A stretch of 64,000 nt of DNA from Patescibacteria group bacterium (GCA_041659045.1 JBAZZB010000002.1:21427-85426), one strand, 5' to 3'. Positions 2,266 through 64,000 are shown, counted from the first letter of the stretch. Numbers and translations are program-made. The notes: generated from the sequence alone by a model not told the origin.

Positions 2266-2617
2266 TCGTTGCCTCTTTGAAGGTGCGTATCGTGTGGATT
2301 GGGTGGGTGTTCGGACGGGCAAGCCACACCTTGTCCGACGCCAGAAGGTAGCAAGTTTCTGCTGGGTTGTCAATGAAAACCCCCTGCTCAGAAAGCTTGC
2401 CTGGCGTCTTTCCCCATGATAAGGTCAAAACAGCTCAACATTATCCGCCCGATCCTCTCTGAACCGGTTGAGTACGAACGTTGCGCCCCACCTATGAGAT
2501 TTTGGTCCGCCTTTCCGGTTGAAACGTCAGAACCAGCGCGCCACGCCAGGAAAGCGTAAGCTTTCCGTTTTTTCGTACACACAACACATCGGTCCAGCGA
2601 GGCTGGCTTACCTTATT

Positions 2618-15035: not shown

Positions 15036-15061
15036 AATGCTTTCAGTATACACGAAAACGA

Positions 15062-15086
15062 AAAGAGCCGGGATGCCCGGCTCTAC
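15062..15086 (-). terminator. rnc terminator (stop codon inside the stem)
   Basis: Perfect palindrome GAGCCGGG-CAT-CCCGGCTC followed by TTTTCGTTTTCG on the minus strand; the rnc TAG lies within the stem. Confidence 0.6.
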
Positions 15087-41534: not shown

Positions 41535-41621
41535 GAAATGACCCCTCTGCACCTTGACATTTCTTTTTTTTCTGCCATACTGCAGATCCTCATCGCGTCC
41601 CAACATCGTACGGAGGCTGTC

Positions 41622-42652: not shown

Positions 42653-42844
42653 TATGCGCTGCAGACGGTTGTAAAAATTCATACACGGCCCCATTGCTCC
42701 ACCTATCGTGGCCGTTGACGCTTTTCGTTGACCAATGGGCCTGCCTACTGTTGAAAGTATTGACAAAAAGGCGGAAGCGTAGTACTTTCCGCGTCTGGGT
42801 TTGGACAAACCGACCTGGTCGGAGACTTACCCATGGAGGACCTC

Positions 42845-43291
42845 ATGCGTAGCACCTTCGTTAGCGGTTCCCTTGCGTTCCTGTTCGGCCTGGCCTGCAT
42901 CCTCGGCAACGCCGGCGCAGACAGCAACCACAGCGCCCCGAGCAACCACTCGGGCACCTTCCTCGCCGATCCGGCGAGTCTGATCTACGACGGCACGTCC
43001 GTCGTCATGATCGGGATCATGAACTCGCCGAGCTGCGGCCAGTTCACGACCGAAGACCAGACCTGCAGCGGCGACGCCGTCGACTCCGACGGGGACGGCA
43101 TCTTCGATGCCAGTTCCTCGGAGCGTCGCATGGGCGAGCTCGACTGCTCGGACCCCCGGCTCACGGGTTGCGAGGAGTGCCTGGGCACGGTGCGCATCTG
43201 CTGCCCGTCGCAGGAGTGCACCGTCAGCAACTGCCCCGGCAAGAGCGGGTACTGTCCCAACGACAAGGGCGGAGGCAGTCACTGCTGCTGA
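42845..43291 (+). CDS. Cys-rich secreted small protein (148 aa, 14 Cys)
   Basis: GGAGG plus 5 nt before the ATG at 42845. Signal peptide MRSTFVSGSLAFLFGLACILGNAGA. C-terminal CxxC-rich segment (CSDPRLTGCEECLGTVRICCPSQECTVSNCPGKSGYCPNDKGGGSHCC). A TTGACA/17/TACTTT promoter lies upstream. Confidence 0.6.
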   Translation: MRSTFVSGSLAFLFGLACILGNAGADSNHSAPSNHSGTFLADPASLIYDGTSVVMIGIMNSPSCGQFTTEDQTCSGDAVDSDGDGIFDASSSERRMGELDCSDPRLTGCEECLGTVRICCPSQECTVSNCPGKSGYCPNDKGGGSHCC

Positions 43292-43414
43292 TGCGCAGGC
43301 GGCCTCATCTATACCCCTTCCACATACGCCCCAGGCGTATTTTTTTTGTCTTCCTTTCAAAGTACAGTCGTGGTGTAATTGCCACGATGACTCTATTTGG
43401 CTAACTTCTGCGAT

Positions 43415-44935: not shown

Positions 44936-45061
44936 CCGTTCGTCTCGCACAGCGTACGCTCCGCACGAACTTGTATCTCAGACGTTGAGCGCTGAACGGA
45001 ACGTCTTCGTTTTCGCTACCCGTCGACACTTCGATTTCAGAGGACAGGTGCAATCCCTGCC

Positions 45062-48360: not shown

Positions 48361-51300
48361 TTAGAGCGCGGTCAGGTCAACCGTGAACTCGCAGCCGGCG
48401 GGGTTCGAAAGTTCAACCCTCCAGCCGCTGTTGAAGTCCGTATCGGTCGAGCGCATCTCGACCAAGCGCGTCGTGTAACCGGCGCCGCCCTGGATTCGAA
48501 GGTTTCCGGCCCTGATGGAACCGTCGGCCTGAATCGTCGGTTGGGTCGGGACCTGCACCTGGAAGACAGCAGTGACGCCGGAGGCAACCTGGCAGGTGTC
48601 ATGCACGCGGAGCGTGTTGCCCTGGAAGCGCAGATCGCGCAGCCACGACTGAACCGCATCCGAGTTGCGCGAGTACGCCGGTGTCAGGTTCGCCTGAGCC
48701 GTCACGACATCGCCGGACTTCGCGTACGTCATTGAAGAGACGGATTCGTTCTGTTCGATGATCGAGCCGTTGCGGCTGAAGCGGACGACGTTATGTGCAC
48801 CGACCGAGAGCTGCAAGCCGCTGTGCGACCACATGTTGTTCGTCGCCGCGAGCCAACCATTGCGATAGAAGGTGAAGGCACCCTGATCGTGGTGGGCGTG
48901 CGATTCGTCATACGGACCAGCAACGAACGAGAGCCATGACGCGTTGGTGTTCCAAGAGCTGCGAGCGAAGAAGTGGCCGACGCCCGTGGCGTGGTATTCA
49001 AGCGCGGTCGGAGCCGTGGCAGCATCGGAAGTCGTCAGCAGCGACGGGCGCAGGTTAAAGCCCGTGAGCGACGTGACCGAGTTGTTGTTCAGCCACCACG
49101 TACCGCGGCGAGCCTGTTCGGTGCCTGTCACGAGAGAGACGGCTTCGCGAACGAGGTTCTCGTGGTAGTCGTAGAGTTCCGGCTGAGAAACGCGGGACTG
49201 GTCGCCGATCGGAGCGAAGCGATCCATCATCGGGACGGTCGCGTGGATCCAATAGTCGATCGTGTCTTTGGCGTGCGTGGAGAACCTCGAAAGGTCTTCA
49301 CCTGTCGACGCCTTCCACATGCGGTAGTCCTCGAAGAGGTTCTTCTGCGCGGTGCCGTAACCAGTACCTTCGCGTGAACCACCACCGTTGATGCGAGCGA
49401 AGTAGTCCACGAGCGGCGGATACTTGTTCTGCTGGAGGAAGCTCATCCACGTCGTGTTCTGCGAAGCGAGTGCCCAGAGCTGGGTCGCTTTCAAGAAGCT
49501 GAAGTGGTAGTTGTTACCCGGGTTATCAATCGACCAGCCGCTCCAAGGAGCGGAGCGCGTGCCCCAACGAGCGTTCGCGGGGTCCCAGACGTTGGCAATT
49601 GTACGATCAGCGAAGGCGGCCCAGCGTGTGCGCTGCGAGGCCGTGAGTCGGTCATATCCATGGTCGTACGTGAGTGCGACCTGTTCCATGACCCAACCCA
49701 CTTCAAGATACGAGTCGCCTGCAACCTCTGGGTTGCGACCTGCGGCGATATCCGCTTCCGCTTCAGCAACCAAGGCATCAACCCTGGCGATCGCGTGCGT
49801 GATATAGGAAGCTTGGTTCGTAAGAGCGTACATCACGACAGCGTCGCTCGGGGTATAGCCGTAGCCCGGGGAACCAGCGACTGCGGAGTCCACCCAGCTC
49901 CTAAAGCTGGCGTAGGTCGGCGCGGTTTGCTTGTAGTCTCGGAGTGAGATGAACGGACGGCTCGATGGGAAGCTATAGGTGTAGCCGGGGTAGATCGTAC
50001 TTGTTGGCGGCGGCGAGCACGTCTGTGTGGTGGCCGGGCTCGGGGTCGTAGCCGTCGAGCAATTGGTCGTCATCGTGCAGGTGCGCGTCTGGCTGCCGCT
50101 CGCGGAACAAGCGTTCCAAGCGGTACACGTCCAGGTATCGGCGGTACAAGCAGGCGGCGTTGTGGTAGTCGGAGTGCAGGACTGCGTCGTGGCCGGGCTC
50201 GGAGTCGTGACGCCGGTGCAATCCGTCGTCATGCTGCAAGAGCGCGTCTGGCCGCCACTTGCGGAACAGGCGTTCCAATCCGTGCAGGACCACGTATCGG
50301 CCGTGCAAGAAGGCGAAGTTGAAGGAGCCGTGCAAGACTGGGTCGTCGCCGGGCTCGGCGTCGTGACGCCGGCGCAGTCAGCGGTCATAAGGCAGCTGCG
50401 AGCCTGGTTTCCGCTGGTCGAGCACATGACCCAATCCGTGCAGGACCACGTATCGGCCGTGCAAGAGGTCGCTCCGCCACCTGTCGAGCTGCTGCCGGGC
50501 ACCACAACATACAGGTGCGCGTCATCAACCGTAGCGGTAATCGTTCCGCCGTCATCCAGTTTGAACTGGAAGAAGACGCGTTCAAGCTGCTGGTTATTGG
50601 TGTTGAGGTTCAAGTAGACATCGACGACCTGCGTGCTCACCGGATAGTCCTGGCAGGTCGAAATTGGATCGCTGGACGAAGACAGGTAGGCAAGCGAGCA
50701 GACCTGCAAGCGGAGACCCGCAGTGGACGCACTGTCGACGCGCACTTTCGCCTTGACCGACACGGAGCTACCAAGAGGGCCACCGTTATACGGATAGTTG
50801 TGAGCGAAGGCAACGCGACCATACGAGTTCACCGTCACACGAAGGCTGTTCGTGCCCTGGAGCGTGCTCGCGGTCGTGCGAGCGACCATGCCGTCGGCGG
50901 ATTCGTTCGGTTCGAAGCCGGCGACCGACGTTTCGAATCCGTTGTCAGTAATAAGGTCAACGAGCTGGTAACCGGAAGGTACCGTCGGCATCGTGCCGGT
51001 GCTCGGTGTCGGTGCAGGCGTCGTGGCCGGCGGAGTGCAGGTTTGCGTGGTCACCGGGCTCGGAGTCACAGTGCTTGCGCACGCATTCGTGATGATGCAA
51101 ATGCGCTGCTGGGTGCCACTCGCGGAACACGTATTCCAACCCGTGCAAGACCAAATGTCGGCCGTGCAGCTCGGAGTTGTTGGCGTCATGGTCGTTGGGG
51201 TGCAGGACTGTGTCGTGGCCGGGCTTGGAGTCGTAACACCAGCGCAGTCAGCGGTCATGGTGCAGACGCGCGTCTGGCTGCCACTCGTCGAACACGAGTT

Positions 51301-51972
51301 CCAATCGGTGCAAGACCACGTATCGGCCGTGCAGCTCGGGGTCGGTACTGGTGTCGGAGTGGGCGTCGGGGTCGGAGCCGGAGTTTCGCCTGTCGGAGGC
51401 GTCGGCAAAGGTGTCGTCGTGGCAACATCACCAAGACCCTTATCAGCGTTAATCGTGGTGGCCGAAGCGAGTTCGGCGTTGCGATCGTAGTCCGCGGCGG
51501 AAGCGATCGGCGAGCCGATCGTGTAGTTTACGAAGAAAGCGTCCGGGATATCATCAACGAGTGACGCCCAGCCCGCTCCAAAAAGCGTAGCGGCGACAGC
51601 CTCGGAGGCCACGTGACGCAAAACGCCTCCGCGGGAAATCGCGTAGACCTTAGGGTCCGTGTCGATTTTGATCATGCGGAAACCTGGGCGATACGTGACG
51701 TTGCCGCCAATGCGGCTCGCGGCCAGTTCAGCGGCGGTAACCGTCTGAACGCTGGAGAAGTCGACGTACCATGTGCGAAACACCCGTTCGTTCGGGAAGA
51801 CGTAACGCCGGCCGTTTGAACCGAAGTAGTAGACGGCGGGATTATCGGCGCGCTTGATGAGAGCACCCGGCGTCGGTGCGGCTTTTGCCGTAAGAGGCAT
51901 GCCGACGAACGACGTCGCGAGCGTAAGGAGGAGGATCAAGGCACGGAACGCGTTCGTCTTCTTCATAGGCAT
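48361..51972 (-). CDS. giant secreted protein: conserved N-terminal module, PT linker, 45-aa Cys-rich tandem repeats, CBM4/9-like domain, heparinase II/III-like (polysaccharide-lyase fold) C-terminal domain
   Basis: Signal peptide MPMKKTNAFRALILLLTLATSFVGMPLTAKA. Module YYFGSNGRRYVFPNERVFRTWY…IGGNVTYRPGFRMIKIDTDPKVY. Repeats SCTADTWSCTDWNxCSxSGxQTRxCxMTxDCAGVTTPSPATTQ in two plus four copies. CBM-like NGFETSVAGFEPNES…. C-terminal region …HHDQGAFTFYRNGWLAATN… Paralog of 57158..60580. Confidence 0.8.
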   Translation of the reverse strand: MPMKKTNAFRALILLLTLATSFVGMPLTAKAAPTPGALIKRADNPAVYYFGSNGRRYVFPNERVFRTWYVDFSSVQTVTAAELAASRIGGNVTYRPGFRMIKIDTDPKVYAISRGGVLRHVASEAVAATLFGAGWASLVDDIPDAFFVNYTIGSPIASAADYDRNAELASATTINADKGLGDVATTTPLPTPPTGETPAPTPTPTPTPVPTPSCTADTWSCTDWNSCSTSGSQTRVCTMTADCAGVTTPSPATTQSCTPTTMTPTTPSCTADIWSCTGWNTCSASGTQQRICIITNACASTVTPSPVTTQTCTPPATTPAPTPSTGTMPTVPSGYQLVDLITDNGFETSVAGFEPNESADGMVARTTASTLQGTNSLRVTVNSYGRVAFAHNYPYNGGPLGSSVSVKAKVRVDSASTAGLRLQVCSLAYLSSSSDPISTCQDYPVSTQVVDVYLNLNTNNQQLERVFFQFKLDDGGTITATVDDAHLYVVVPGSSSTGGGATSCTADTWSCTDWVMCSTSGNQARSCLMTADCAGVTTPSPATTQSCTAPSTSPSCTADTWSCTDWNACSASGGQTRSCSMTTDCTGVTTPSPATTQSCTPTTTTPPACTADTWTCTAWNACSASGSQTRTCTMTTNCSTATTPSPATTQTCSPPPTSTIYPGYTYSFPSSRPFISLRDYKQTAPTYASFRSWVDSAVAGSPGYGYTPSDAVVMYALTNQASYITHAIARVDALVAEAEADIAAGRNPEVAGDSYLEVGWVMEQVALTYDHGYDRLTASQRTRWAAFADRTIANVWDPANARWGTRSAPWSGWSIDNPGNNYHFSFLKATQLWALASQNTTWMSFLQQNKYPPLVDYFARINGGGSREGTGYGTAQKNLFEDYRMWKASTGEDLSRFSTHAKDTIDYWIHATVPMMDRFAPIGDQSRVSQPELYDYHENLVREAVSLVTGTEQARRGTWWLNNNSVTSLTGFNLRPSLLTTSDAATAPTALEYHATGVGHFFARSSWNTNASWLSFVAGPYDESHAHHDQGAFTFYRNGWLAATNNMWSHSGLQLSVGAHNVVRFSRNGSIIEQNESVSSMTYAKSGDVVTAQANLTPAYSRNSDAVQSWLRDLRFQGNTLRVHDTCQVASGVTAVFQVQVPTQPTIQADGSIRAGNLRIQGGAGYTTRLVEMRSTDTDFNSGWRVELSNPAGCEFTVDLTAL

Positions 51973-52192: not shown

Positions 52193-53998
52193 ATGAAAAA
52201 ATATGTGCGCGCGTCGAGCGGCTTTGCGGCTCTTTTTTTAGCTTTAATTCTTGCTCTACCGTTTAGTGCCAAGGCGGCAACGACGCCATCACTTGGTGCG
52301 GCGGCAGAGTATGCCATCTTGGCTAGCACCTACACCAACACGGTGGGTGGCACTACGGTCACTGGTAGTATCGGCTTCACAACACCTCCGGGTGTTGTCC
52401 CAGGTGGCGTCCACGCGAACTACGGTTCCGGCGCCCCGTATTCTACGGCCGGCACTGATCAAGGTACGGCACTTAGCGCTCTTGCGGCACAGGCCTGTAC
52501 ATTCACGTTCGCCCCAGGCGCAATTAACCTCTCAACCGACATCACGCACGGCCCGGTCGGTGTCTATACGCCTGGTGTCTATTGCAGCTCTGGAGCTATG
52601 AACGTCGGCGGTCCCCTGACCTTAAACGGCAGCGGCACCTACATCTTTAGAGCGGTCGGAGCGCTCACCTCGACGGCCGGCGCTGTCGTCACACTCTCTG
52701 GCGCTTCTGCTTGCGACGTCTTCTGGACGCCGACGCAAGCCACGACCTTGGCCGCCAACACGACATTTGCCGGTACCGTCATCGATAACGCAGGAGTGAC
52801 CGTGGGTGCCAACACCACATGGTCCGGTCGCGCTCTCGCCTTCGGAGGCACGGTTTCGACCGATACCGACACCATCAGCGTACCGACCTGCACGACGACG
52901 ACAACCACGACGTCGAGCAGCCCAAACCGCGGATCCATCGCTGTCATCAAGCGGGTTATCAACGATAACGGCGGTACCAGCACGATTGCGAACTTCCCCT
53001 TGTATGTGAACGGAACGCCGGTCGCTTCCGGTGTGAGCAATGATTTTTCGGCTCCGGCGGGCGTCTATACGGTAACGGAGAGAACGGATGAGCGTTATAC
53101 GCAAATCTTTTCCGGCGATTGCGACGCAAGCGGGCGTTTGAACCTGAACCCAGGCGATGTCCGTATCTGTATCGTCACGAACGACGACATTGGAGCGCCT
53201 GTGGCTGTTCCGCCCGTGCCGCCGCTGATCGATGTCGTGAAGGTTCCGAGTCCCCTCTCGTTGCCGAACGGCCCTGGTTTGGTGGAATACACCTACACCC
53301 TTCGCAACATCGGAACCGTTCCGGTCACGGACGTCACAATGGTCGGTGACACGTGCGTGCCGATCGTTCTCATGTCCGGCGACACGGATGCCGACTCTCG
53401 CCTTGATACGTCTGAAACGTGGGTCTATCGCTGCACGACACAGCTCAACGAAACGCATACGAATACCGTTGTCGCCACGGGTTGGGCAAACGGCATTAGC
53501 GCCGTTGATATCGCAAGCGCCTCGGTCGTCGTCGGCTTGCCGATCGTGCCGCCGCTGATTCACGTGACGAAGATTCCGAGCCCGCTCACGCTCGCCGCTG
53601 GAGGCGGAGTGGTCACCTACACCAAGAAAGTCACGAACCCAGGCATCGTAGCGCTGAGCAACGTCTACCTCACGGATGATATGTGCAGCTCTGTCGTGTA
53701 TGTGTCCGGCGATGCCAACAGCGATACGAAACTCGATACGTCGGAAACGTGGACCTATACCTGCCAAACAACGTTATTGAAAACTACGACGAATACCGTC
53801 ACGGCCAGCGGTGAAGCAAATGGTTTGACCGCAAGAGATTTCGCGGTCGCGACCGTTGTTGTCGCGGCTCTCGTGCCGAAACTGCCAAACACCGGATTCG
53901 CAAGCGCAAACATGGTCTTTGCCTGGAGCGCCTTCGCGGCAGCTCTGGTCATCAGCGCGGCACTCTGGGCAGTCCGTCGCAAAAGCCAGGTTCAATAA
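52193..53998 (+). CDS. LPXTG-anchored surface protein: DUF3494 (ice-binding-like) N-domain, prealbumin-like domain, two DUF11 repeats
   Basis: Signal peptide MKKYVRASSGFAALFLALILALPFSAKA. C-terminal sorting signal LPNTG plus hydrophobic helix plus RRKSQ. Internal modules are shared with 54743..57118. Confidence 0.8.
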   Translation: MKKYVRASSGFAALFLALILALPFSAKAATTPSLGAAAEYAILASTYTNTVGGTTVTGSIGFTTPPGVVPGGVHANYGSGAPYSTAGTDQGTALSALAAQACTFTFAPGAINLSTDITHGPVGVYTPGVYCSSGAMNVGGPLTLNGSGTYIFRAVGALTSTAGAVVTLSGASACDVFWTPTQATTLAANTTFAGTVIDNAGVTVGANTTWSGRALAFGGTVSTDTDTISVPTCTTTTTTTSSSPNRGSIAVIKRVINDNGGTSTIANFPLYVNGTPVASGVSNDFSAPAGVYTVTERTDERYTQIFSGDCDASGRLNLNPGDVRICIVTNDDIGAPVAVPPVPPLIDVVKVPSPLSLPNGPGLVEYTYTLRNIGTVPVTDVTMVGDTCVPIVLMSGDTDADSRLDTSETWVYRCTTQLNETHTNTVVATGWANGISAVDIASASVVVGLPIVPPLIHVTKIPSPLTLAAGGGVVTYTKKVTNPGIVALSNVYLTDDMCSSVVYVSGDANSDTKLDTSETWTYTCQTTLLKTTTNTVTASGEANGLTARDFAVATVVVAALVPKLPNTGFASANMVFAWSAFAAALVISAALWAVRRKSQVQ

Positions 53999-54742: not shown

Positions 54743-57118
54743 ATGCAAACGACTATGATACCTCGCACCAGAATCCGTGCGGTGCTGATTGGAGTCTCCG
54801 CCTTTTTCGGCCTGTTCTGTCTCGCATCGGCGACAAAAGCTGAGTCCCTGGTCCTCAACGCCGCCGCTGACTCGTACGTCCAAAGCGGGTCGCCAAACGC
54901 GAACAATGGCACCCAAAACATCATGGACCTGACCGACAATAAGCACGGTGTCATTCGTTTTGATCTCAGCGCGATTCCACCTGGGTCGACGATCACGTCG
55001 GCAATCTTGACGCTCCGAGCGACAGCCGTCGGCAATTCCGGATCGATTAAAAACTTCGGAATGCACCGAATCCTATCGGACTGGGTCGAAAACACCGTGA
55101 CATGGAACCTCCCGGGAAGCGCTGCGGGCACGCACTACGCGTCTGCGCCGATCCAGACGATCGCGGTCACAAACATCGGCCTTTATACCTGGAACGTTAC
55201 TTCCGACGTCGTGAGTTTTTCGAGCGGCTCTGAGGCGAATCGCGGCTGGCGCATTATCTGGTCGTCGAACACGAGCGGCGCAAGCAAGCAAGTCGACTTC
55301 GGATCGAAGGAAAATACCACGTCTACGAATCGTCCCAGTCTGACCGTCACCTATACACCGCCCGTTTCCGGATTGCAGCGCCAAGGAACGATCACCGTCT
55401 TGAAAGTCGTCATCAACGACAATGGCGGCCTAAAGGTTCCGGAGGATTTTCCAATTTTTGTCAATACGGAGCCGGTGACTTCCGGTATTTCGCATACCTT
55501 CCCCGCTCCGGCCGGTGTCTATGAAGTCAGTGAGCTCGGCGATCCAAACTATGTACGGTCGTTTTCGGGCGATTGCGATGCGGCCGGTCGATTAAACCTC
55601 AATCCCGGCGACGTGCGGTTTTGTATCATCAAGAACGACGATATCGGCCCACCCGTGCTGACCCCACCCCCCATCCCGCCACTGATCGGTGCCCTGCTGA
55701 CCGCGAATCCATTGGCGCTGCCGGACGGTCCCGGACGGGTTTCCTACGCGTACACGTTAAAGAATATCGGCTCAACCCCGATCACGGGAGTAACGATCGT
55801 CAGCGATACTTGTACGCCGACATTCTTGGGTTCGGGTGACACGAACAAAGACGCCAAACTTGATACAACGGAAACATGGGTCTATCAATGCGAAACGCAG
55901 ATTGAAGAAACGCGCACGAATACGACCATCACGACAGGGTGGGCCAACGGTCTGGTGACGGCCGATATTGAAGCATTGACGACCCTGGTCGGAACCTCGC
56001 TCGTAGCACCTATCATTCACGTGACGAAGGTTCCGAGTCCACTCGCCCTGAGCGCTGCCGGCGGCATCGTGACCTACACGCAGCAAATCACGAATCCCGG
56101 CACAGTCGCGCTCAGCAATGTACGCATCTCGGACGACGTTTGCGCGCCACTGCAGTACATTTCCGGCGACTCCAACGACGACGGTTTGCTCAACACGACC
56201 GAAACTTGGACGTACATCTGCCGGAAGGTGCTGACCAAGACCACGACCAACACCGTCGTCGTGAGCGGAGAAGCGAACGGTATGGTGGCAAGAGATTTTG
56301 CGCTGGCCACCGTTGTCCTGTCGGACGTGATGGATACGCACTACTACGGCGCCACAGAGGCAACAGCATCCGCGATGAGCATCAGCGCCAACAACGGTAT
56401 GCTGCTACCCCCTCTTGGCCAACCCGCATTATGTGCTGACGGCAGTCTCATGACATTGCCAGATGACGGCAATGCTTCCACACAGTCCGACTCCGCGCTC
56501 TATGTGTGTGGCATGGACGGAAAACGTTACGTCTTTCCGGATGTGGGAACGTATTACAGCTGGTACAAGGACTTTCAAGGCGTGAGCGTCGTCTCCGCAG
56601 AGTTTCTAGCGACTCTCCCGCTTGCCGGAAACGTCACCTACCGTCCAGGCCAGCGTTTATTGAAGATCGAGTCGGATCCAAAAACCTATGCTGTCGCGCA
56701 AGGTGGCGTGCTGCGCTGGGTCGTCGACGAATCGACGGCACAAGCCCTTTACGGAGCGCAGTGGAATACGTTCGTCTCAGACATTCCTGTTTCACTCTTC
56801 AGCGACTACCGCATCGGCGATCCTATTACGACGCAGGACGTGCTTCCGGATTCGATTCCTCCGCGCTCGGTTTGCATCGCGACTGCTGATTTTACCAAGT
56901 ATCTTTCGTTCGAAAGTGTGGACGCTGAGGTACGACCACTTCAGGAGCTGCTGCAGTGCCTTGGATACTTCCGAGCCGATGTGGCGCCAAACGGCTACTT
57001 CGGAGTTCAAACCAAGGTTGCCGTGGAGAAATTCCAAACCGCGCGCGGTATCGCGTCTGTCGGCTACGTTGGGCCAGCCACGCGTGCGGCTCTGAATACC
57101 TACGTCGAAGGTCGATAA
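54743..57118 (+). CDS. surface protein: DNRLRE-like N-domain, prealbumin-like plus two DUF11 repeats, conserved ~110-aa module, PG_binding_1 domain
   Basis: Signal peptide …SAFFGLFCLASATKA. DNRLRE-like segment LVLNAAADSYVQSGSPNANNG…FDLSAIPPGSTITSAILTL. Conserved module YVCGMDGKRYVFPDVGTYYSWY…AGNVTYRPGQRLLKIESDPKTY. C-terminal LQELLQCLGYFRADVAPNGYFGVQTKVAVEKFQTARG is a peptidoglycan-binding domain. Confidence 0.8.
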   Translation: MQTTMIPRTRIRAVLIGVSAFFGLFCLASATKAESLVLNAAADSYVQSGSPNANNGTQNIMDLTDNKHGVIRFDLSAIPPGSTITSAILTLRATAVGNSGSIKNFGMHRILSDWVENTVTWNLPGSAAGTHYASAPIQTIAVTNIGLYTWNVTSDVVSFSSGSEANRGWRIIWSSNTSGASKQVDFGSKENTTSTNRPSLTVTYTPPVSGLQRQGTITVLKVVINDNGGLKVPEDFPIFVNTEPVTSGISHTFPAPAGVYEVSELGDPNYVRSFSGDCDAAGRLNLNPGDVRFCIIKNDDIGPPVLTPPPIPPLIGALLTANPLALPDGPGRVSYAYTLKNIGSTPITGVTIVSDTCTPTFLGSGDTNKDAKLDTTETWVYQCETQIEETRTNTTITTGWANGLVTADIEALTTLVGTSLVAPIIHVTKVPSPLALSAAGGIVTYTQQITNPGTVALSNVRISDDVCAPLQYISGDSNDDGLLNTTETWTYICRKVLTKTTTNTVVVSGEANGMVARDFALATVVLSDVMDTHYYGATEATASAMSISANNGMLLPPLGQPALCADGSLMTLPDDGNASTQSDSALYVCGMDGKRYVFPDVGTYYSWYKDFQGVSVVSAEFLATLPLAGNVTYRPGQRLLKIESDPKTYAVAQGGVLRWVVDESTAQALYGAQWNTFVSDIPVSLFSDYRIGDPITTQDVLPDSIPPRSVCIATADFTKYLSFESVDAEVRPLQELLQCLGYFRADVAPNGYFGVQTKVAVEKFQTARGIASVGYVGPATRAALNTYVEGR

Positions 57119-57157: not shown

Positions 57158-60100
57158 TTACCACATGCTCCGGCCGCCGAGCGCCCAACCAATGACGGGG
57201 GCGTTCTTGTACTGCCAGAGGAATTTGCGGGGCGGAACCGTGCGGTAGACAGCGCGGCCAGCAGCGCGCGTTGCGTCGCTGTTGCGGGTCCAATAAGCAA
57301 TGGACTCGTCGTGCGTCAGAAGCAGCTGCTTAGCAATATTCTGAAGCGAGGTGCGCTGTGTCATGTCGGTCGTGAAGTAGGCACCGAGGGCGACGACACT
57401 GCTCACGTCGAGCGAGTGTTCGAAGCCGTTGGCCGGATCCGGATCAGCATCACCCTTCGCACCGAAGCTGTAGGCGATGTAGTACGGGTAGTAGCGGCCA
57501 ACCGACATCGGTCCGTCTTCTCCGGCTTGAAGCGTCGTGATACCGCGGTTCACTTCGCACTGTGCGAGATCAACCAAGGCGGCGGGCACGGACGAGTGAC
57601 CAGTGGCTTGGTAACCGCGGAGGAAACCATAGGCCAAGAGACTCGACATCCACGGTGAGAAGGTATTGTTCTCCCCTTCCGGCGGATAGTTGAAGCAGCC
57701 GTTCGGCGCGTTGCCGTTCAAGCTCGAAGTCTGGCGTGCGCGCATCGTATTGATGGCGTTCGTGACCATCGCGCGCTGGTGGGCGCTACCCGTCAACTCG
57801 GCGTCGACAGCGTGCGCGAGCAAGGCGTAACCGCGATGGCGTTCCGTTTCACCGGTTCCCATCAAGTTGATGTGGAACTCCATGGCCCAAGAGATGTAGC
57901 CGATCTTCTTGAGGTGCGTCGTGTCACCTGTCAGGAGGTAGTTCGAGAGAAGACCTTCGCTGTACGAATACTTGAGGTCGTGGAAGGAGCCGGCGGCGTC
58001 GGGATTCTTCAGGCGGAAGCTGCCGACGCAGTACGGATAGTACGTACCTGAGCAGTTTTCCGGCCCATAGATGTTCTGCGCGTAGTGATCCGCAGCGCGC
58101 TGCGCTTCACGGAGCATGTCGGCGTTGCCGGTACGGAAGTAGCCGTTATAGAAGGTCTGCGTGCGGTCGTAGAGCCACGGTTCTGCGTCGGTGTAGAAGT
58201 CGATGAGGTCATCGGCATAGGTCACCGGCCACGACTGCTTCACCGAGTGCTGGTTGGTGAGCGAGTAGAAGAAGTCATCGGTGGCTTTGTCCGTGGCGGC
58301 GAGATACGTCTGGGTGCCGGTCGGGTTCACCATCGGGAAGATGGCCGTGCAGTCCAAGTAGCGGTTATCGATTGCGGCGAGCACGCGCGGTTCGCGAATC
58401 GTGAGGCCGCTCGTGTTTACGGACGGCGCATACGTGCCGTCATTCACGACGCGATACGTGTCGCGCACCGGGGTTTCGCTCGTAAGGTTCTGCGTGCGAG
58501 CGCGGTTCAAGCCGACCGTGACGGTCACCGGGCTGGTACTCGAGAAGTTCATGTCGAACTGGACGAGCACGCTGCGGATACCGGGGTTACCGGAAGCCGT
58601 GAGGCCGTTGCAGAGCAAACGCTGATCCGGCATCTGTTCCCAAGCGCCGAGACTGCGGACGAAAGCCGGGAGTTCCTGGCCGGCAGCGTTCGTCACGCGG
58701 ATATTATTGGTATTCACGAGCGTGCTCGGCGGGAGCGGGAAGCCGAACGAAACGCGGCGCGTCTGGCCGACGGAGTCGGCAGCCGGGATCAAGCGGACCG
58801 TGACGTCCTTCGGCGTGGTGTTGACCGCGGCGCCGTTCGAGGAGAGGTCGTTACGCAAGTCCATTTCGGCGGTCATCGAACGGAACGTGGTCGGACGGCT
58901 GTTATAGCCAGACAATTCAAGGTTGGTCGAATCCGAGGCCGGGGGCGGCACCGTGCAAGATTGCGACGTGGCCGGGCTCGGCGTGGTGACGCCAGCGCAA
59001 TCCGTCGTCATGCTGCAGGAGCGCGTCTGGCTGCCGCTGGCAGAACAGGCGTTCCAGTCAGTACATGTCCAGGTATCGGCCGTACAGCTCGGAGACGGCG
59101 TCGGCGCAGGTGCGGGCGTCGGGGTCGTGGTTGAACACGACTGTGAAGTCGCCGGGCTCGGCGTCGTGACGCCGGCGCAGTCAGACGTCATGCTGCAAAG
59201 ACGCGTCTGGTTGCCGCTTGTCGAGCACGCATTCCAATCCGTGCAGGACCACGTGTCGGCCGTACAGGTCGGAGCTGGCGTTGAAGCAGCCCTCTGCTCA
59301 ACAACATAGAGGTGCGCGTCATCAACCGTAGCCGTAATCGTGCCCGCATCGTCCAGTTTGAACTGGAAGAAGACGCGCTCGAGACGTTGGTTATTGGTGT
59401 TGAGGTTCAAGTAGACATCAGTGGACTGCGTGCTCACCGGGTAATCCTGGCAGCTCGAGATCGGCTGACCCGAAGAAGCGAGATACGCGATCGAGCAGAT
59501 CTGCATGCGCAAACCGGCTGCGGAAGCGCTGTCGACTCGGACCTTGGCTTTCACCGTCACCGAGCTCGCGAGCGGACCGCCGTTATAGGGGTAGTTGTGC
59601 GCGAAGGAGACGCGGCCATAGGAGTTCGTGGTCACGCGAAGGCTGCTCGTACCTTGAATCGGGCTTGCAGTGATACGAGAAACCGTACCATCGGACGATT
59701 CGTTCGGCTCGAAACCACCAACGGATGATTCGAAACCATTGTCCGTGATGTAGTCAGCGAGCGCGGAGCCGGAAGGAACCGTCGGCATCTGTCCGGTGGT
59801 CGGCGTCGGAGTGGGCGCGGGGGTCGTGACCGGCGGCGTGCAGGACTGTGTGGTAGCCGGGCTCGGCGTCGTGACGCCGGCGCAGTCGGTTGTCATGCTG
59901 CAAAGGCGCGTCTGGCTGCCGCTGGCAGAGCAGGCGTTCCAATCGGTGCAAGACCACACGTCAGCCGTGCAGCTCGGGGTCGGAGTGGGCGTCGGGGTAG
60001 GGGTCGGCGCCGGCGGAGGCGTCGGAGTGGCAATATTGCCAAGACCCTTATCCCCATTAATACTGGTCGCCGAAGCAAGTTCAGCCGTGCGATCGTAGTC

Positions 60101-60580
60101 GGCGGCGGAATTGATGGGCGAACCGTCGGTGTAGTTTACGAAGAAGGCGTCCGGAATATCGTCGATAAGCGACGCCCAGCCGGAGCCAAAGATGGCGGCA
60201 GCGACGGCTTCAGACGAAACAAAGCGCAAAATGCCGCCACGCGAGATCGCGTAGACGCTGGGATCGGTATCGATTTTGATCATGCGAGAACCCGGGCGAT
60301 ACGTGACGTTGCCGCCAATCGTGATCGCGGCGAGTTCATCGGCCGTGACGGTTTGAACGCTGGAAAAATCGGAGTACCAGGTTCGGAAAACGTTTTCGTT
60401 CGGGAAGACGTAACGCCGGCCGTTGGAGGCGAAGTAATAGACGGCAGGATGATCGGCGCGCTTGATGAGGGCACCCGGAGTCGGTGCGGCTTTTGCCGTA
60501 AACGGCATGCCGACGAAGGACGTCGCGAGCGTAAGGAGGAGGATCAAGGCACGGAACGCGTTCGTCTTCTTCATAGGCAT
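57158..60580 (-). CDS. giant secreted protein, paralog of 48361..51972, with a different (alpha/alpha)-toroid-like C-terminal domain
   Basis: N-terminal ~180 aa are >90% identical to the paralog, including the signal peptide and module. One plus two Cys-rich repeats and a CBM-like domain follow. The C-terminal 600 aa are distinct (…YYPYCVGSFRLKNPDAAGSFHDLKYSYSEGLLSNYLLTGD…), consistent with a glycoside hydrolase/lyase-like toroid; this call is low certainty. Confidence 0.8.
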   Translation of the reverse strand: MPMKKTNAFRALILLLTLATSFVGMPFTAKAAPTPGALIKRADHPAVYYFASNGRRYVFPNENVFRTWYSDFSSVQTVTADELAAITIGGNVTYRPGSRMIKIDTDPSVYAISRGGILRFVSSEAVAAAIFGSGWASLIDDIPDAFFVNYTDGSPINSAADYDRTAELASATSINGDKGLGNIATPTPPPAPTPTPTPTPTPSCTADVWSCTDWNACSASGSQTRLCSMTTDCAGVTTPSPATTQSCTPPVTTPAPTPTPTTGQMPTVPSGSALADYITDNGFESSVGGFEPNESSDGTVSRITASPIQGTSSLRVTTNSYGRVSFAHNYPYNGGPLASSVTVKAKVRVDSASAAGLRMQICSIAYLASSGQPISSCQDYPVSTQSTDVYLNLNTNNQRLERVFFQFKLDDAGTITATVDDAHLYVVEQRAASTPAPTCTADTWSCTDWNACSTSGNQTRLCSMTSDCAGVTTPSPATSQSCSTTTPTPAPAPTPSPSCTADTWTCTDWNACSASGSQTRSCSMTTDCAGVTTPSPATSQSCTVPPPASDSTNLELSGYNSRPTTFRSMTAEMDLRNDLSSNGAAVNTTPKDVTVRLIPAADSVGQTRRVSFGFPLPPSTLVNTNNIRVTNAAGQELPAFVRSLGAWEQMPDQRLLCNGLTASGNPGIRSVLVQFDMNFSSTSPVTVTVGLNRARTQNLTSETPVRDTYRVVNDGTYAPSVNTSGLTIREPRVLAAIDNRYLDCTAIFPMVNPTGTQTYLAATDKATDDFFYSLTNQHSVKQSWPVTYADDLIDFYTDAEPWLYDRTQTFYNGYFRTGNADMLREAQRAADHYAQNIYGPENCSGTYYPYCVGSFRLKNPDAAGSFHDLKYSYSEGLLSNYLLTGDTTHLKKIGYISWAMEFHINLMGTGETERHRGYALLAHAVDAELTGSAHQRAMVTNAINTMRARQTSSLNGNAPNGCFNYPPEGENNTFSPWMSSLLAYGFLRGYQATGHSSVPAALVDLAQCEVNRGITTLQAGEDGPMSVGRYYPYYIAYSFGAKGDADPDPANGFEHSLDVSSVVALGAYFTTDMTQRTSLQNIAKQLLLTHDESIAYWTRNSDATRAAGRAVYRTVPPRKFLWQYKNAPVIGWALGGRSMW

Positions 60581-60596: not shown

Positions 60597-60625
60597 CATT
60601 GTATCAAAAAAACGTCAAGAGTTCA
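60597..60625 (-). promoter_or_regulatory. duplicated sigma70-like promoter (copy 2)
   Basis: Same TTGAAC/17/TACAAT arrangement as 51990..52018. Confidence 0.45.
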
Positions 60626-60659
60626 AGACCTCTTTGACGTTTTCCTGTAATTTTAGCGA

Positions 60660-61046
60660 TTACGCGCGCGTGGCAGTCGGTGGATGGAGCAAAATTTCTT
60701 TCACTTTCTCCACGACTTCCTTAATAGGGTGCTGGGCTTTGACGAAATAATCGGTCGCTCCAAGCTTGAGAGCGCGCTTGATGTCTTCGTCCTGACCAAG
60801 ATTTGAGAGAATGATGACCGGGACGACTTTTGTCACTTGATCGGCTTGCAGCGCTTCGAGAACTTCGAAGCCGCTCTTCTTCGGCAACATGAGGTCGAGG
60901 AGAATGAGGTCCATTTGCGCAGCCTTTGCCTTCATCAAGGCCTCTTCGCCGTCTTGAGCCGTTTCAACAAGAAAGTGATGGTGCTCGAACTCGTCGCGCA
61001 ACACCTCACGCAGCGTTTTTTCGTCTTCGGCGATGAGGATCTTCAT
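60660..61046 (-). CDS. stand-alone response regulator receiver (CheY-like)
   Basis: MKILIAEDEKTLREVL…DLILLDLMLPKKSGFEVLEAL…VPVIILS…KLGATDYFVK: phospho-acceptor Asp and the T/K signature present, no output domain. The ATG at 61046 is preferred over the ORF-track start at 61082. Confidence 0.8.
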   Translation of the reverse strand: MKILIAEDEKTLREVLRDEFEHHHFLVETAQDGEEALMKAKAAQMDLILLDLMLPKKSGFEVLEALQADQVTKVVPVIILSNLGQDEDIKRALKLGATDYFVKAQHPIKEVVEKVKEILLHPPTATRA

Positions 61047-61062: not shown

Positions 61063-62760
61063 TTATTTGTTGATGTCTTCAATGCTATCCGAAATATACT
61101 TGCTGAGCTCCTTCGCTCGTTTTTTCCAACGCTCCAGAAGCGTCAGCGTTTCTTTCGTTTCCGATTCCGCGAGCGTCGCCTGCTTCCCGTACTTCTTGAG
61201 CAGATACCCGAAGTCTTTCTCCATTTGATCTCCCGCCGAGAGTAAATCGCGCTGCGCGATCACTTGGCGATTTCTCCGCTTCCGTCCGCGCACCTGGCTC
61301 ATCCTCCAACCCACGACGTACCCGCCAAGGAGCAGCGCGATGATAGAGAGGAAGAAAACCGCTTGGGAAACTTCAATGCCCGCCAAGACGAGGAAGGGGC
61401 GCGCTCGTACGGTGAACGGGGCCGTACGGACCGGAAGACTGAGAGCGCCGCGCTCGTCGCGAGCGACGGCCTCAACCATATACTGACCCTTTTGGAGCGG
61501 ATGCTCAATATGAGCGTTCCACACCCCATTTTCATCCGGAGCGATGGTCGTGGTTGCAACCGTTTCGCCATTGATCCGTCTGAGCGTCACCAAGACGCTT
61601 GCTCCCGGCATCACTGTACCAGCAATGGTCAGCTCGCCCTCGTCGACGAAAATATCCCTGGGGATCGCGCTGATCGTCGGAGACACGATCGGTACGATCG
61701 TGAGATCGACGGAAGCTTCCGTACGGTTGCCCGCCTGGTCGATCGCGAAGATCTTTACGACGTGCTCGCCAGGAGGAAGCGGCTGAAGCGCTTGCTCGCT
61801 TTCCGTTTGAATTTCCTCACCGGCGTCGATCCGCATGCGGTAGGCGCGGAGCCCGGAAAGCTGGTCGGCACTGGCGTAGGAAAGCTTCGGATTCGGCACG
61901 TCGGAGATCGCTCCTTGTGGAACAAGCACTTCAAACGGCGTCGGCGGAAGCGTGTCGATGGCGATACGGTAGTGCGTCGTTTCGCTCCAACCGACGTTGT
62001 TTCGGAAGCGCACGTGTAGATACCAGATCCCATCTTTTGTGACACGGAAGAGCTTGTTATCGAACAACCCTTCTGATTTCGACGGATTCGTTTGCGGATC
62101 CTGGTTCAATGCTGTCGCGACCGCACTTACGTCGGAAGGAAGATTCCACTTCGCGATAAACGTCGAGAGGATGTTGTACCAATCGCTCGAATTTGGATAG
62201 AGCGGAATTTCAACTTTTGGGGCGTCAGGATTTTTTTCCGCCGGAGTCGGCTCGCGCGTAATCTGCGTCGGCTTTTCCTCGAGCGGCGCAGTGTTCGCAA
62301 TACTGATGCCGTGCATGGCCGTGAGCACGTTGGTGCCGGCTCCATCGCTCGCCGCGACGGCTCCATCGACAAACTGAAAGTCTGCCGTACCGATTTTTTT
62401 GATCTTGAACGTCACGCGTACGATCGGCAGCGACTGCCCGACAAAACCGTTGGTTGAACCGCCCGTGAAGACGATGCGGCCTGTTTCATTCGAATAACTC
62501 GGGCCCTCGACCCAAAAGTTAAACACGGAGTCGTTCGTATCGACGCCAACAGCTTCGACAAGGTCGATCGGGTACTGAAGCGACGCTTCGGCAGCGTTGA
62601 TACCGGCGTTTTCCGTATTGATCGTGAGCGTGAGCGTGACGTTTTCGCCAACCTTGGCAGAACTCTTATCGAGAAGCGCATCGAGCGTGGCAGCGGAGAC
62701 ATGGCTACCGATGAGCACTCCTGCGAGCACCAACGGCGCGTACAGATATGTGAGGCGCAT
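61063..62760 (-). CDS. membrane-anchored surface protein with N-terminal cohesin-like domain
   Basis: Signal peptide MRLTYLYAPLVLAGVLIGSHVSAA. Cohesin-like beta-sandwich GENVTLTLTINTENAGINAAEASLQYPIDLVEAVGV…GRIVFTGG…FVGQSLPIVRVTFKIKKIG. Ig-like domains, C-terminal TM helix, cytoplasmic coiled-coil tail. Confidence 0.6.
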   Translation of the reverse strand: MRLTYLYAPLVLAGVLIGSHVSAATLDALLDKSSAKVGENVTLTLTINTENAGINAAEASLQYPIDLVEAVGVDTNDSVFNFWVEGPSYSNETGRIVFTGGSTNGFVGQSLPIVRVTFKIKKIGTADFQFVDGAVAASDGAGTNVLTAMHGISIANTAPLEEKPTQITREPTPAEKNPDAPKVEIPLYPNSSDWYNILSTFIAKWNLPSDVSAVATALNQDPQTNPSKSEGLFDNKLFRVTKDGIWYLHVRFRNNVGWSETTHYRIAIDTLPPTPFEVLVPQGAISDVPNPKLSYASADQLSGLRAYRMRIDAGEEIQTESEQALQPLPPGEHVVKIFAIDQAGNRTEASVDLTIVPIVSPTISAIPRDIFVDEGELTIAGTVMPGASVLVTLRRINGETVATTTIAPDENGVWNAHIEHPLQKGQYMVEAVARDERGALSLPVRTAPFTVRARPFLVLAGIEVSQAVFFLSIIALLLGGYVVGWRMSQVRGRKRRNRQVIAQRDLLSAGDQMEKDFGYLLKKYGKQATLAESETKETLTLLERWKKRAKELSKYISDSIEDINK

Positions 62761-62765
62761 ACGGC

Positions 62766-64000
62766 TTATTTACGAATCGTTCGAATAAAGATGCTGAAGT
62801 CTGACACGTCGACCTCTCCGTCACTATTCATATCAAGCAGCGCGCGTAGGCTTTCGTCGGCTGATCGCCACCGATAGAGGAAGATGCTCCAATCGGCGAT
62901 ATCGACCTTCGTATCCTCGTTGAGATCCGTCCGCGCGTTCAGGACCCTGGAGACGTTTAAGGTTTTTGGTACCGAGTCCCCGCTCTTCACGCCGTCTGCC
63001 GCAACCTGTCGCGTGCGAATGGCGTGTTTGCCGTATTCCAGCTGCAGCGTCGGCAAGAGGAGTTTGTAGGTACCGTCCTCTTCAACGATCACTTTTTGAA
63101 ACGCCTCATCATCGATGACGACTTCCACGTGATATCCAGGCGTTCCGTAGCCGAACACGAGAATTTGGTTTCCTCGCAAGATCGAGGCACGCGAGAGGTT
63201 GATCGTCGGTGCTGGGAAAATTATCCGCTCGGTAACCGCGTTCAATTCAACTTCGTCCGTGAACGGAATGGATGGACTTACTTGCCCTTGCTTGTCCGTC
63301 ACGCTGACTTCGTAGGAGGCGATCTCTTCAAACGGTCCGGCGTATTCCAGCTGGAAGCTGCCGTCTGCCGACGAGACGACGGCTTCCGACAGCACCAAAT
63401 TCGTTTTCTCGTTCTTGCCGTTGAGCGCCAAGCGCGCACCCGGATACGCCCGGCCGACGAAGCGAAGAATCGTCTGTGCCGGCAACGGCGAGGCGGAACC
63501 AGAACCGCCATAGGAAACGGACGCTTCCTCACCAACGGCTCTGAAAACCGCTTGCTGCATCGAAGACACGTTTAGTCCCGTTGATTCGACGTCTGTCAGC
63601 GTGAGCGTGACCGTTTCAGCAACAGCACTCGTGAGCGTCGCGGTGCCGACGCCGTTTACGACATCAATCACACCGTCGCCTGTCGCGGAGCCATCCGCGT
63701 TCAACCGAACATCCGTTTGATAGGACGTGTCGACGTTTCCGCTTGCGTCCTCTGCCCTGACAACAACAGTCATGTTACCGCCAACGACGACATCTTCCGG
63801 ATCAAGAATAGCGAACCGTGTCGCAACAATCGGCGCGGCACTCACAGCAACAGTATCCGCTGCGTCCGCGACGCCGGCTGCGCCATCCGGACCCGATGCG
63901 TTATCCGAAACCGTAATTATCCTGCTCCCCTCTCCTTCGTCGTAATACCAGAACGCGCCAGTGGACTGACCCGCCGCGATCACGAGCGACGTTATTTGCG
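62766..64000 (-). CDS. dockerin-containing secreted protein (5' end probably beyond window)
   Basis: C-terminal duplicated Ca-binding dockerin segments DLNEDTKVDIADWSIFLYRW … DMNSDGEVDVSDFSIFIRTI, preceded by beta-sandwich/Ig-like repeats. The frame continues to the window edge beyond the ORF-track Met at 63983. Confidence 0.6.
   Translation of the reverse strand, partial: QITSLVIAAGQSTGAFWYYDEGEGSRIITVSDNASGPDGAAGVADAADTVAVSAAPIVATRFAILDPEDVVVGGNMTVVVRAEDASGNVDTSYQTDVRLNADGSATGDGVIDVVNGVGTATLTSAVAETVTLTLTDVESTGLNVSSMQQAVFRAVGEEASVSYGGSGSASPLPAQTILRFVGRAYPGARLALNGKNEKTNLVLSEAVVSSADGSFQLEYAGPFEEIASYEVSVTDKQGQVSPSIPFTDEVELNAVTERIIFPAPTINLSRASILRGNQILVFGYGTPGYHVEVVIDDEAFQKVIVEEDGTYKLLLPTLQLEYGKHAIRTRQVAADGVKSGDSVPKTLNVSRVLNARTDLNEDTKVDIADWSIFLYRWRSADESLRALLDMNSDGEVDVSDFSIFIRTIRK

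Follow-up and report, generated by a model that had tools for sequence, protein, structure and literature searches.

What is the role of a membrane-anchored, cohesin-bearing protein that is encoded side by side with a dockerin-ended protein and next to a response regulator? The question is raised by one end of a 64,000-nucleotide stretch of DNA from a Patescibacteria group bacterium (GCA_041659045.1 JBAZZB010000002.1:21427-85426), hereafter referred to as the window. An initial annotation of this stretch had read the two proteins as a cognate pair forming a two-component surface scaffold and the regulator as an orphan. We found that this region forms the 3' half of an operon of four genes, which encodes a histidine kinase, a large dockerin-ended protein (the fibre), the cohesin protein (the anchor), and a receiver-only response regulator. 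Its products probably form a two-piece, adhesin-like fibre that is assembled by a cohesin-dockerin joint, is tied to a two-component pathway, and is conserved across the Patescibacteria (candidate phyla radiation [CPR]).

Open reading frame (ORF) calling placed three genes on the minus strand at this end of the window, at 60660..61046, 61063..62760, and 62766..64000; the latter two are the paired ORFs of the initial annotation, with the same limits. The frame of 62766..64000 was still open at the window end, and only the C-terminal 411 codons and the stop codon are inside the window. An exact look-up with the 565-amino-acid (aa) anchor protein showed that the locus had been assembled a second time, in L001. 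This assembly was identical to the window across all 3403 shared bases and added 8.7 kb. The upstream sequence of the dockerin protein was thereby obtained, giving the full protein of 1356 aa with an N-terminal hydrophobic segment. In NCBI, the identical 565-aa protein is labelled 'cohesin domain-containing protein [Patescibacteria group bacterium]' and is located on a 319,851-bp contig. The genes of the locus and the end of the operon are as follows (E, expect value):

L001 4138..5922: histidine kinase, 594 aa, outside the window; 2-bp gap to the dockerin gene.
L001 5925..9995: dockerin fibre gene, 1356 aa; 5-bp gap to the cohesin gene.
L001 10001..11698: cohesin anchor gene, 565 aa; 16-bp gap to the regulator gene.
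L001 11715..12101: regulator gene, 128 aa; last gene of the operon.
62766..64000, minus strand: 3' part of the dockerin fibre gene, 411 codons and stop (full protein of 1356 aa in L001).
61063..62760, minus strand: cohesin anchor gene, 565 aa, type I membrane protein (ORF; Pfam Cohesin, Big_13, and Big_6).
60660..61046, minus strand: receiver-only response regulator (RR*), 128 aa (Pfam Response_reg, E = 1.8e-24).
60605..60647, minus strand: intrinsic-terminator hairpin followed by U7, 3' of the regulator; operon end.

The hairpin has a predicted RNA folding energy of -20.3 kcal/mol (z = -6.1), and none of 200 shuffled sequences was equally stable. A G+C-rich terminator is located ahead of the kinase gene (L001 4070..4088). 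Thus, the short intergenic gaps and the terminators on both sides define a four-gene operon. The regulator had looked like an orphan because the window ends before the kinase gene; in fact, it is the last gene of a kinase-led operon, and its subfamily is tightly linked to the pair (see below). When the 64-kb window was scanned with hidden Markov models (HMMs) of the four families, exactly one dockerin, one cohesin, and one regulator were detected, and no kinase was found.

The arrangement was then followed across related genomes. With HMMs built from the studied locus, 88 loci were scanned, and pairs were counted on non-redundant loci. The anchor family has a fixed architecture of ~570 aa and comprises at least 120 relatives according to a word-indexed search (E values down to 0); in an exhaustive profile search with a threshold of E ≤ 1e-30, 3363 representatives were returned, among them giant proteins with immunoglobulin (Ig) repeats. 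Named members belong to Saccharibacteria, Sungbacteria, Yanofskybacteria, Colwellbacteria, Uhrbacteria, Wolfebacteria, Liptonbacteria, Paceibacterota, Minisyncoccota, and Pacebacteria. In 69 of the 70 non-redundant loci with at least 300 bp of upstream sequence, the gene immediately ahead of the anchor gene encodes a dockerin-ended protein, showing that the side-by-side pair is no coincidence of a single genome. The sole exception has the order dockerin-regulator-cohesin (Doc-RR-Coh).

The regulator directly follows the anchor in 43 of 69 loci. To count as pair-linked, a regulator had to reach at least 150 bits with the subfamily HMM and to lie on the same strand, and the loci were binned according to the flank available on both sides. 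Pair-linked regulators were present in 38/39, 27/27, and 20/20 loci with flanks of at least 2, 4, and 6 kb, respectively; the corresponding numbers for the kinase were 25/39, 20/27, and 16/20. Fifteen gene orders were found among the regulator-scored loci, and the order Doc-then-Coh was constant throughout. In the reverse test, five regulator homologues (55-62% identical, picked solely for lying on long contigs) were inspected, and each adjoined a Doc-Coh pair. The Doc-Coh pair is an inseparable evolutionary unit, and one receiver-only regulator subfamily is mutually linked to it. One 5,662-bp contig with an anchor and a regulator (P0013 and P0303) is labelled 'Methylococcaceae bacterium' in NCBI; most likely, this is a CPR contig mis-binned into a proteobacterial metagenome-assembled genome (MAG).

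The dockerin side of the pair was characterized next. The fibre starts with the N-terminal hydrophobic segment, which is followed by a weak region resembling a carbohydrate-binding module (CBM; CBM_11-like match, E = 0.017), ~8 Ig-like repeats, two Big_6-like domains, and the dockerin. Hydropathy analysis revealed no transmembrane (TM) segment beyond the N-terminal hydrophobic one, and no enzyme domain was detected in the 1356 aa. The C-terminal features, which lie within the window, are as follows:

62958..63227, minus strand: Ig-like domain abutting the dockerin in an X-module-like position, with a junction of ~5 residues (AlphaFold2 [AF2], Foldseek).
62769..62957, minus strand: dockerin module, last 63 aa (Pfam Dockerin_1).
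62892..62927 and 62799..62834, minus strand: calcium-binding loops of the dockerin, each followed by a helix D[WF]SIF[LI].

The neighbour of the anchor does end in a canonical duplicated dockerin, as proposed in the initial annotation. Pfam Dockerin_1 (PF00404) matched the fibre with 27.7 and 25.7 bits (gathering cut-off, 22.9) and the isolated module with 32.1 bits. Both 12-residue loops show the D1-N3-D5-D12 pattern, DLNEDTKVDIAD being followed by WSIFLYRW and DMNSDGEVDVSD by FSIFIRTI. A Dockerin_1 match was obtained for 44 of 45 family modules. In an alignment of these 45, D13, N15, D17, D24, D44, N46, D48, and D55 are invariant or at least 90% conserved, and the helix residues S26, F28, L29, and S57, which are not calcium positions, are likewise at least 90% conserved. 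Judging from this conservation, the S, F, and L residues of the helices could contact the cohesin.

A search of the Protein Data Bank (PDB) with the single sequence did not separate EF-hands from dockerins, and therefore a profile search was needed. With a dockerin-only profile (A5), three dockerins were ranked first (E = 1e-7 to 5e-7), and the alignments with 2y3n_B and 2yik_A covered both repeats. The AF2 model of the C terminus (predicted local distance difference test [pLDDT], 89.7) consists of loop-helix, short helix, and loop-helix, with no helix entering loop 1. This is the F-hand topology and differs from a four-helix EF-hand pair. Thus, the profile ranking and the AF2 layout favour a dockerin over an EF-hand.

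The Ig-like domain preceding the dockerin is modelled as a beta-sandwich (AF2 residues 15-93) and has Ig-like Foldseek matches. No X-module-dockerin (XDoc) structures were among the top fold matches of the Ig-dockerin model, in which the relative domain orientation is unreliable (predicted TM-score, only 0.61). The Ig-like region next to the dockerin is conserved in ~90-100% of the family dockerin proteins, and the dockerin is at the extreme C terminus in every one of them. Complete family members range from 411 to 2136 aa. They share the last ~100 aa in 100% of cases, and the first 350 aa of the 1356-aa fibre have counterparts in ~10%. Overall, family-wide conservation is found in the last ~250 aa of the fibre, which comprise Ig-like domains and the dockerin, and the N-terminal passenger varies both in length and in content. 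In 38 complete dockerin proteins, the domains fn3, Big, Big_3_5, YDG, MBG, TIG, and BNR/Sortilin were detected.

The anchor is composed of a signal peptide, the cohesin, a Pro/Thr-rich linker, four beta-sandwich stalk domains, a TM helix, and a cytoplasmic tail. It is a type I membrane protein with a single cohesin at the membrane-distal tip of a stalk. Its parts are as follows:

62692..62760, minus strand: signal peptide, aa 1-23, ending in ..VSA/AT.. (hydrophobic aa 6-26; Ala-Ala end).
62290..62691, minus strand: cohesin module, aa 24-157 (Pfam, AF2, Foldseek).
61936..62202, minus strand: most conserved anchor segment, aa 187-275, YP..WYN...W.LP.DV...DGIWYLHVRF.N..GW...HYRIAIDT.PP.
61396..61935, minus strand: Ig-like stalk domains, aa 276-455, Big_3_4-like and Big_13 (Pfam).
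61306..61377, minus strand: TM helix, ~aa 462-485 (Kyte-Doolittle peak of 2.2 over aa 455-487).
61066..61305, minus strand: cytoplasmic tail, ~80 aa, basic and then charged; always present, weakly conserved.

The initial description of this protein as membrane anchored with an N-terminal cohesin was borne out by the Pfam score, the fold, and the TM segment. Pfam Cohesin (PF00963) matched aa 30-140 with 35.3 bits (gathering cut-off, 24.1; E = 1.6e-8). The AF2 model of aa 24-167, calculated with 70 homologues, is an all-beta sandwich of 9-10 strands with a pLDDT of 94.1. When this model was compared to the PDB with Foldseek, the best 50 matches were cohesins of types I, II, and III, some of them non-cellulosomal (E = 1e-8 to 2e-6; TMq, 0.60-0.77). 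The model and its matches show the nine-stranded, flattened beta-sandwich (jelly roll) of cohesins. The strands assigned as 3, 5, 6, and 8, which make up the canonical dockerin-binding sheet 8-3-6-5, have a mean conservation of 0.66, in comparison to 0.47 for the other sheet (p = 2e-4), and within the cohesin the highest conservation is that of the 8-9 loop (0.86). This selective conservation supports docking of a dockerin on the cohesin.

Outside the cohesin, A23 and A24 at the end of the signal peptide are invariant among 41 homologues. The segment of aa 187-275 has a mean conservation of 0.67, with 41 columns at 0.8 or above. In the same homologues, W205, D210, G244, Y247, H249, F252, G257, D269, and P273 of this segment are invariant, and W194 and W258 are at least 90% conserved; no Pfam match was found in it. 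Pfam Big_13 was detected at aa 373-439 (E = 5.5e-10), and for the stalk a PDB profile search matched the SiiE-type adhesin 2yn3. Directly after the single TM segment, RMSQVRGRKRRNR is basic, in agreement with the positive-inside rule, and ~70 more residues, charged in character, come after it. The tail contains an R..IAQRD motif past the TM helix and a nearly invariant Y555.

The regulator carries D8, D51, S81, and K103. In a 43-sequence alignment, the first three are at least 90% conserved and K103 is ~80% conserved. According to NCBIfam, it is nearest to PhoB/OmpR-type receivers; no DNA-binding or enzymatic output domain is present on it, and the regulator ORFs of related loci are nearly all receiver sized (121-155 aa). 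Therefore, the regulator must act through protein contacts. The kinase has a HisKA (E = 4.9e-19), a HATPase_c (E = 2.3e-28), and a PAS domain, with two TM segments around an outside loop of ~150 aa, and it resembles the PhoR, WalK, and PnpS classes. Many loci (L012-L014, L028, L065, and others) have a second, lower-scoring receiver-only regulator beside the kinase. Two regulators, neither with an output domain, suggest a branched or sink-type phosphorelay.

Natural variants of the anchor were also informative. In P0075 and P0194, which belong to separate clusters, a PAS domain replaces the cytoplasmic tail, which argues for a signalling position at the cytoplasmic end of the anchor. P0075 is present in two independent assemblies (L089 3268..5166 and L090 125..2023); a GAF protein is encoded upstream in L089, and neither a regulator nor a kinase was found at the P0075 locus. 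In P0236, the cohesin is replaced by a PA14-bearing passenger, which is fused straight to the stalk. This passenger shows no significant similarity to the studied fibre in BLASTP, and thus P0236 only shows that a passenger, not necessarily the same one, can be fused to the stalk. An SH3_3 domain, which is of the peptidoglycan- or wall-binding type, is inserted in the stalk of P0166, P0172, P0177, P0186, and P0227; this insert in one subfamily supports a wall-spanning stalk. Shorter anchors of 474-486 aa are without one Ig unit (Big_13) and keep the TM helix and the tail. At P0230, P0252, and P0262, a short (~300 aa) cohesin-TM protein is encoded directly before the full anchor.

Based on these data, we propose the following model. 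The fibre would be exported, and its dockerin most likely plugs into the cohesin of the adjacent anchor, in a manner predicted to be Ca2+ dependent. The conserved stalk would span the wall and hold the cohesin outside, so that the cell would display an exchangeable fibre. Such an appendage would be adhesin-like and would consist of two pieces held together non-covalently. Kinase and receiver-only regulator would constitute a dedicated pathway, either controlling the appendage post-translationally or being informed by it. Candidates for the contact point between this pathway and the appendage are the anchor tail, the kinase, or a third protein. A direct, conserved interface between tail and regulator is not favoured: conservation is lower in the tail than anywhere else in the anchor (0.41; three columns at 0.8 or above), and a strongly conserved interface, considered as a firm claim, was downgraded for this reason.

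The weak conservation of the tail is one of several points that weigh against the proposed assembly or its link to signalling. Between about one-quarter and one-third of the loci had no kinase within the sequenced flanks. An N-terminal hydrophobic stretch was detected by a crude test in only 24 of 43 complete dockerin proteins, so that export may not apply to every one of them. The adhesin role of the fibre is suggested by its domain types alone. In a PDB sequence search with the family profile, the best cohesin, 5aoz_A, was matched weakly (E = 0.0067) and over the first 65 residues only, and Pfam Cohesin matched only 24 of 41 anchor family members at E ≤ 0.01; since sequence similarity to solved cohesins is weak, the cohesin assignment is based on the fold. 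In the covariation analysis, for which 68 paired dockerin and cohesin sequences were assembled, mutual information with average product correction, computed without a control, gave a top z of ~5 and no coherent pattern. Furthermore, EF-hand families and PDB chains matched the dockerin module at only slightly weaker E values than dockerins. These matches bear on the reservation, raised initially, that the segment might be a generic EF-hand-like calcium site; the profile ranking and the AF2 layout speak in favour of a dockerin. The covariation result and the EF-hand matches are compatible with an alternative in which the two proteins do not bind each other, the C-terminal segment being an EF-hand-like calcium cap that stabilises the fibre and the cohesin-like sandwich binding a host surface ligand or another envelope protein. 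We consider this quite unlikely, given that the module is duplicated, has no helix entering loop 1, and terminates a protein with an export-type signal; that its S, F, and L helix positions are conserved without being calcium positions; that adjacency holds in all but one of 70 loci; that conservation within the cohesin is selectively higher in the canonical binding sheet; and that the stalk of P0236 carries a fused fibre at the usual place of the cohesin. Cohesin and dockerin as hallmark cellulosome modules, the weak CBM_11-like match in the fibre, and a CBM96 protein nearby in the window could point to a minimal scaffold of the cellulosome kind, carrying enzymes that degrade polysaccharides. 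This explanation is extremely improbable and was rejected, in line with the initial annotation: anchors have one cohesin throughout the family, there is no multi-cohesin scaffoldin, the window contains a single dockerin, no glycoside hydrolase catalytic domain was found in the 38 complete dockerin proteins (0/38), and no cellulase was present among the window ORFs scanned.

The remaining explanations accept the cohesin-dockerin joint and differ from the proposed two-piece adhesin tied to signalling in what surrounds it. The anchoring device could be real and the kinase and regulator could be a general envelope or phosphate-type system (PhoR/WalK-like), co-transcribed and with other targets. 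The similarity to the PhoR/WalK/PnpS and PhoB classes, the wide variation in kinase architecture and length between loci (288-1152 aa), the loci without a kinase, and the poorly conserved tail are all in agreement with this. However, the linkage outlasts repeated rearrangement of gene order and holds in both directions (27/27 from the anchor, 5/5 from the regulator), a regulator of distant genes would be expected to have the output domain that is missing here, and in the PAS fusions the anchor itself carries a sensory domain. We therefore regard a merely co-transcribed signalling system as unlikely. To a similar degree, we doubt that the complex, once formed, has a purely structural task in the envelope, for example as a spacer, as a tether of the S-layer, or as a fibre that organises the wall, and is no adhesin for hosts or substrates. 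Passengers made mostly of generic Ig- and fn3-type repeats, an anchor family that is near-universal in CPR whatever the habitat, and the SH3_3 wall-binding insert of some stalks would suit such an element. A hypervariable passenger beside a conserved plug is, however, typical of surface-recognition proteins and not of structural tethers, and lectin-like or adhesin-type domains (PA14 in P0236, and BNR/Sortilin, TIG, and a weak CBM_11-like match elsewhere) point in the same direction.

The two-piece adhesin has partial counterparts in known systems. In Ruminococcus flavefaciens, both the adhesin CttA and the scaffoldin ScaB are anchored by the ScaE cohesin through their XDoc. The PDB entries 5lxv, 5n5p, and 4wi0, which we take to be ScaE-type structures, are among the fold matches of the anchor cohesin. 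By analogy, ScaE/CttA appears to be the closest functional counterpart, followed by the type II cohesins that are anchored by SLH domains in Clostridium thermocellum. As in the ScaE system, a single cohesin on the cell is predicted to capture a dockerin that, abutted by an Ig-like domain in the position of the X module, ends a large extracellular protein, which is non-enzymatic and presumably binds a substrate. ScaE is attached to the wall by sortase; the CPR anchor, in contrast, is held by a TM helix of its own and continues into a cytoplasmic tail. The CPR system further differs in having no multi-cohesin scaffoldin and no enzymes, in that its operon also encodes a kinase and a receiver-only regulator, and in its lineage.

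In C. thermocellum, SdbA, OlpB, and Orf2p combine a type II cohesin with SLH domains and bind the XDoc of CipA. Structures presumably of this type (PDB 2b59, 5k39, and 3kcp) are also among the fold matches. Both here, by prediction, and there, a large extracellular protein is held at the surface by a non-covalent cohesin-dockerin contact. In contrast to the SLH anchoring, enzymatic cellulosome, and RsgI anti-sigma regulation of C. thermocellum, the CPR locus has a co-operonic two-component system.

Cohesins and dockerins outside cellulosomes are often single copies, and roles in surface assembly or cell-cell interaction have been proposed for them; Peer et al. reportedly surveyed such modules in 2009. 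A non-cellulosomal cohesin of Archaeoglobus fulgidus (2xdh) was found among our fold matches, and structures from glycosidase and toxin complexes of Clostridium perfringens (2vo8, 2jh2, 2w1n, and 2jnk/2ozn) were matched in the fold and PDB profile searches. We know of no non-cellulosomal system with a fixed Doc-then-Coh pair, a TM-plus-tail anchor, or an obligate receiver-only regulator; in CPR, these three features are shared by dozens of loci. ANME archaea also carry non-cellulosomal cohesin and dockerin modules (PMC9012536). The CPR pair resembles the archaeal, C. perfringens, and ANME cases in using cohesin and dockerin outside cellulose degradation.

In the saccharibacterium Southlakia epibionticum, the cell-envelope protein SEML1_0315 contains a dockerin domain and is essential according to transposon sequencing (PMC10633639). 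It has 927 aa and Ig-like domains, and its gene is located on the same strand as, and just after, those of the PAS histidine kinase SEML1_0318 and the receiver-only regulator SEML1_0317, and a tRNA gene (PMC10633639). Unlike in the CPR cassette described here, no cohesin-anchor gene follows SEML1_0315 in the gene table (PMC10633639). SEML1_0315 is possibly related to the fibre, the likeness being one of description and gene arrangement. In the searchable open-access literature on cohesin and dockerin in CPR, Patescibacteria, Saccharibacteria, and Parcubacteria, we found no description of the cassette. As far as we know and as far as this literature shows, the TM-plus-tail anchor, the fixed Doc-then-Coh pair, and the obligate receiver-only regulator across the whole radiation do not belong to the R. 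flavefaciens, C. thermocellum, archaeal, C. perfringens, or ANME systems.

A more far-reaching idea, which we put forward tentatively and with considerable doubt, is that CPR bacteria possess, almost universally, an integrin-like device for contact signalling that is built from cellulosome parts and has the fibre as its sensory or effector end. Acting outside-in, a ligand or mechanical load on the fibre would be transmitted through the anchor TM helix and tail (PAS in some lineages) to the kinase and regulator. Acting inside-out, the phosphorylated regulator would act on the anchor and switch display or clustering of the fibre. In Pseudomonas, the giant repeat adhesin LapA is retained at the surface under post-translational control by a membrane-spanning relay (LapA/LapG/LapD). 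Together with integrin inside-out signalling, this system offers a functional analogy for the speculative signalling idea only. The Lap proteins are unrelated and use cyclic di-GMP and a protease, in contrast to the His-Asp phosphorelay of the CPR cassette. If such a device existed, it could be the host-recognition apparatus of the episymbionts, and the essential dockerin protein of Southlakia would be its counterpart.

CPR bacteria represent a large share of bacterial diversity, and those in culture grow attached to the cells of a host. To our knowledge, the molecules used by CPR for host attachment and sensing are largely unknown, and Southlakia is the one genetically tractable CPR system. 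The cassette is a concrete candidate for both functions, being widespread and predicted to be surface exposed. Its conserved plug-and-socket joint and hypervariable outer part follow the pattern expected of a specificity determinant, and the cassette is firmly linked to a signalling pair in which the regulator lacks a transcriptional output. The proposed assembly would extend cohesin-dockerin biology from enzyme scaffolding to a membrane-anchored adhesin coupled to signalling, and protein engineers could use the phylogenetically distant Coh-Doc pair as an orthogonal tool. Even a plain anchoring device would provide a family-level annotation for hundreds of 'hypothetical' CPR proteins. The origin of the window from a CPR MAG is consistent with the episymbiotic lifestyle that the initial annotation had envisaged, and is no proof of it.

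Other attachment-related genes that had been listed initially were also recovered in the window. A PilB-type ATPase (T2SSE and MshEN; 31147..32859, plus strand) and a PilT-type ATPase (T2SSE; 13992..15089, minus strand) are present, and the 'delta-60 propeller' protein corresponds to 9627..13043 (minus strand; 1138 aa), which has 13 DUF5122 beta-propeller repeats (E = 1.6e-170). Two further surface-type proteins are encoded on the plus strand, at 52193..53998 (Ice_binding-like and DUF7507/DUF11) and at 54743..57118 (CBM96, DUF7507/DUF11, and PG_binding_1).

The genes flanking the operon, 57158..60580 (minus strand) and L001 2925..4055 (plus strand), share a ~150-aa domain without family assignment (42% identity, E = 2e-40), which is N-terminal in the 1140-aa protein encoded by the former and C-terminal in the 376-aa PKD/Big protein encoded by the latter. 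The 1140-aa protein has no Pfam or NCBIfam match; it contains three Cys-rich repeats of ~45 aa with the pattern CTAD.W.CTDWNACS.SG.QTR.CSMT.DCAGVTTPSPAT.QSC. No Pfam match at E ≤ 0.001 was obtained for the proteins of 1203, 707, and 723 aa encoded at 48361..51972 (minus strand), 42827..44950 (minus strand), and 109..2280 (plus strand), respectively. A 357-aa protein encoded at 41538..42611 (plus strand) matches Pfam Phage_30_3 (bacteriophage GP30.3; E = 7.8e-48) within a CPR chromosome region. Finally, the first 2 kb of the window are G+C rich (0.67, in comparison to ~0.57 elsewhere).

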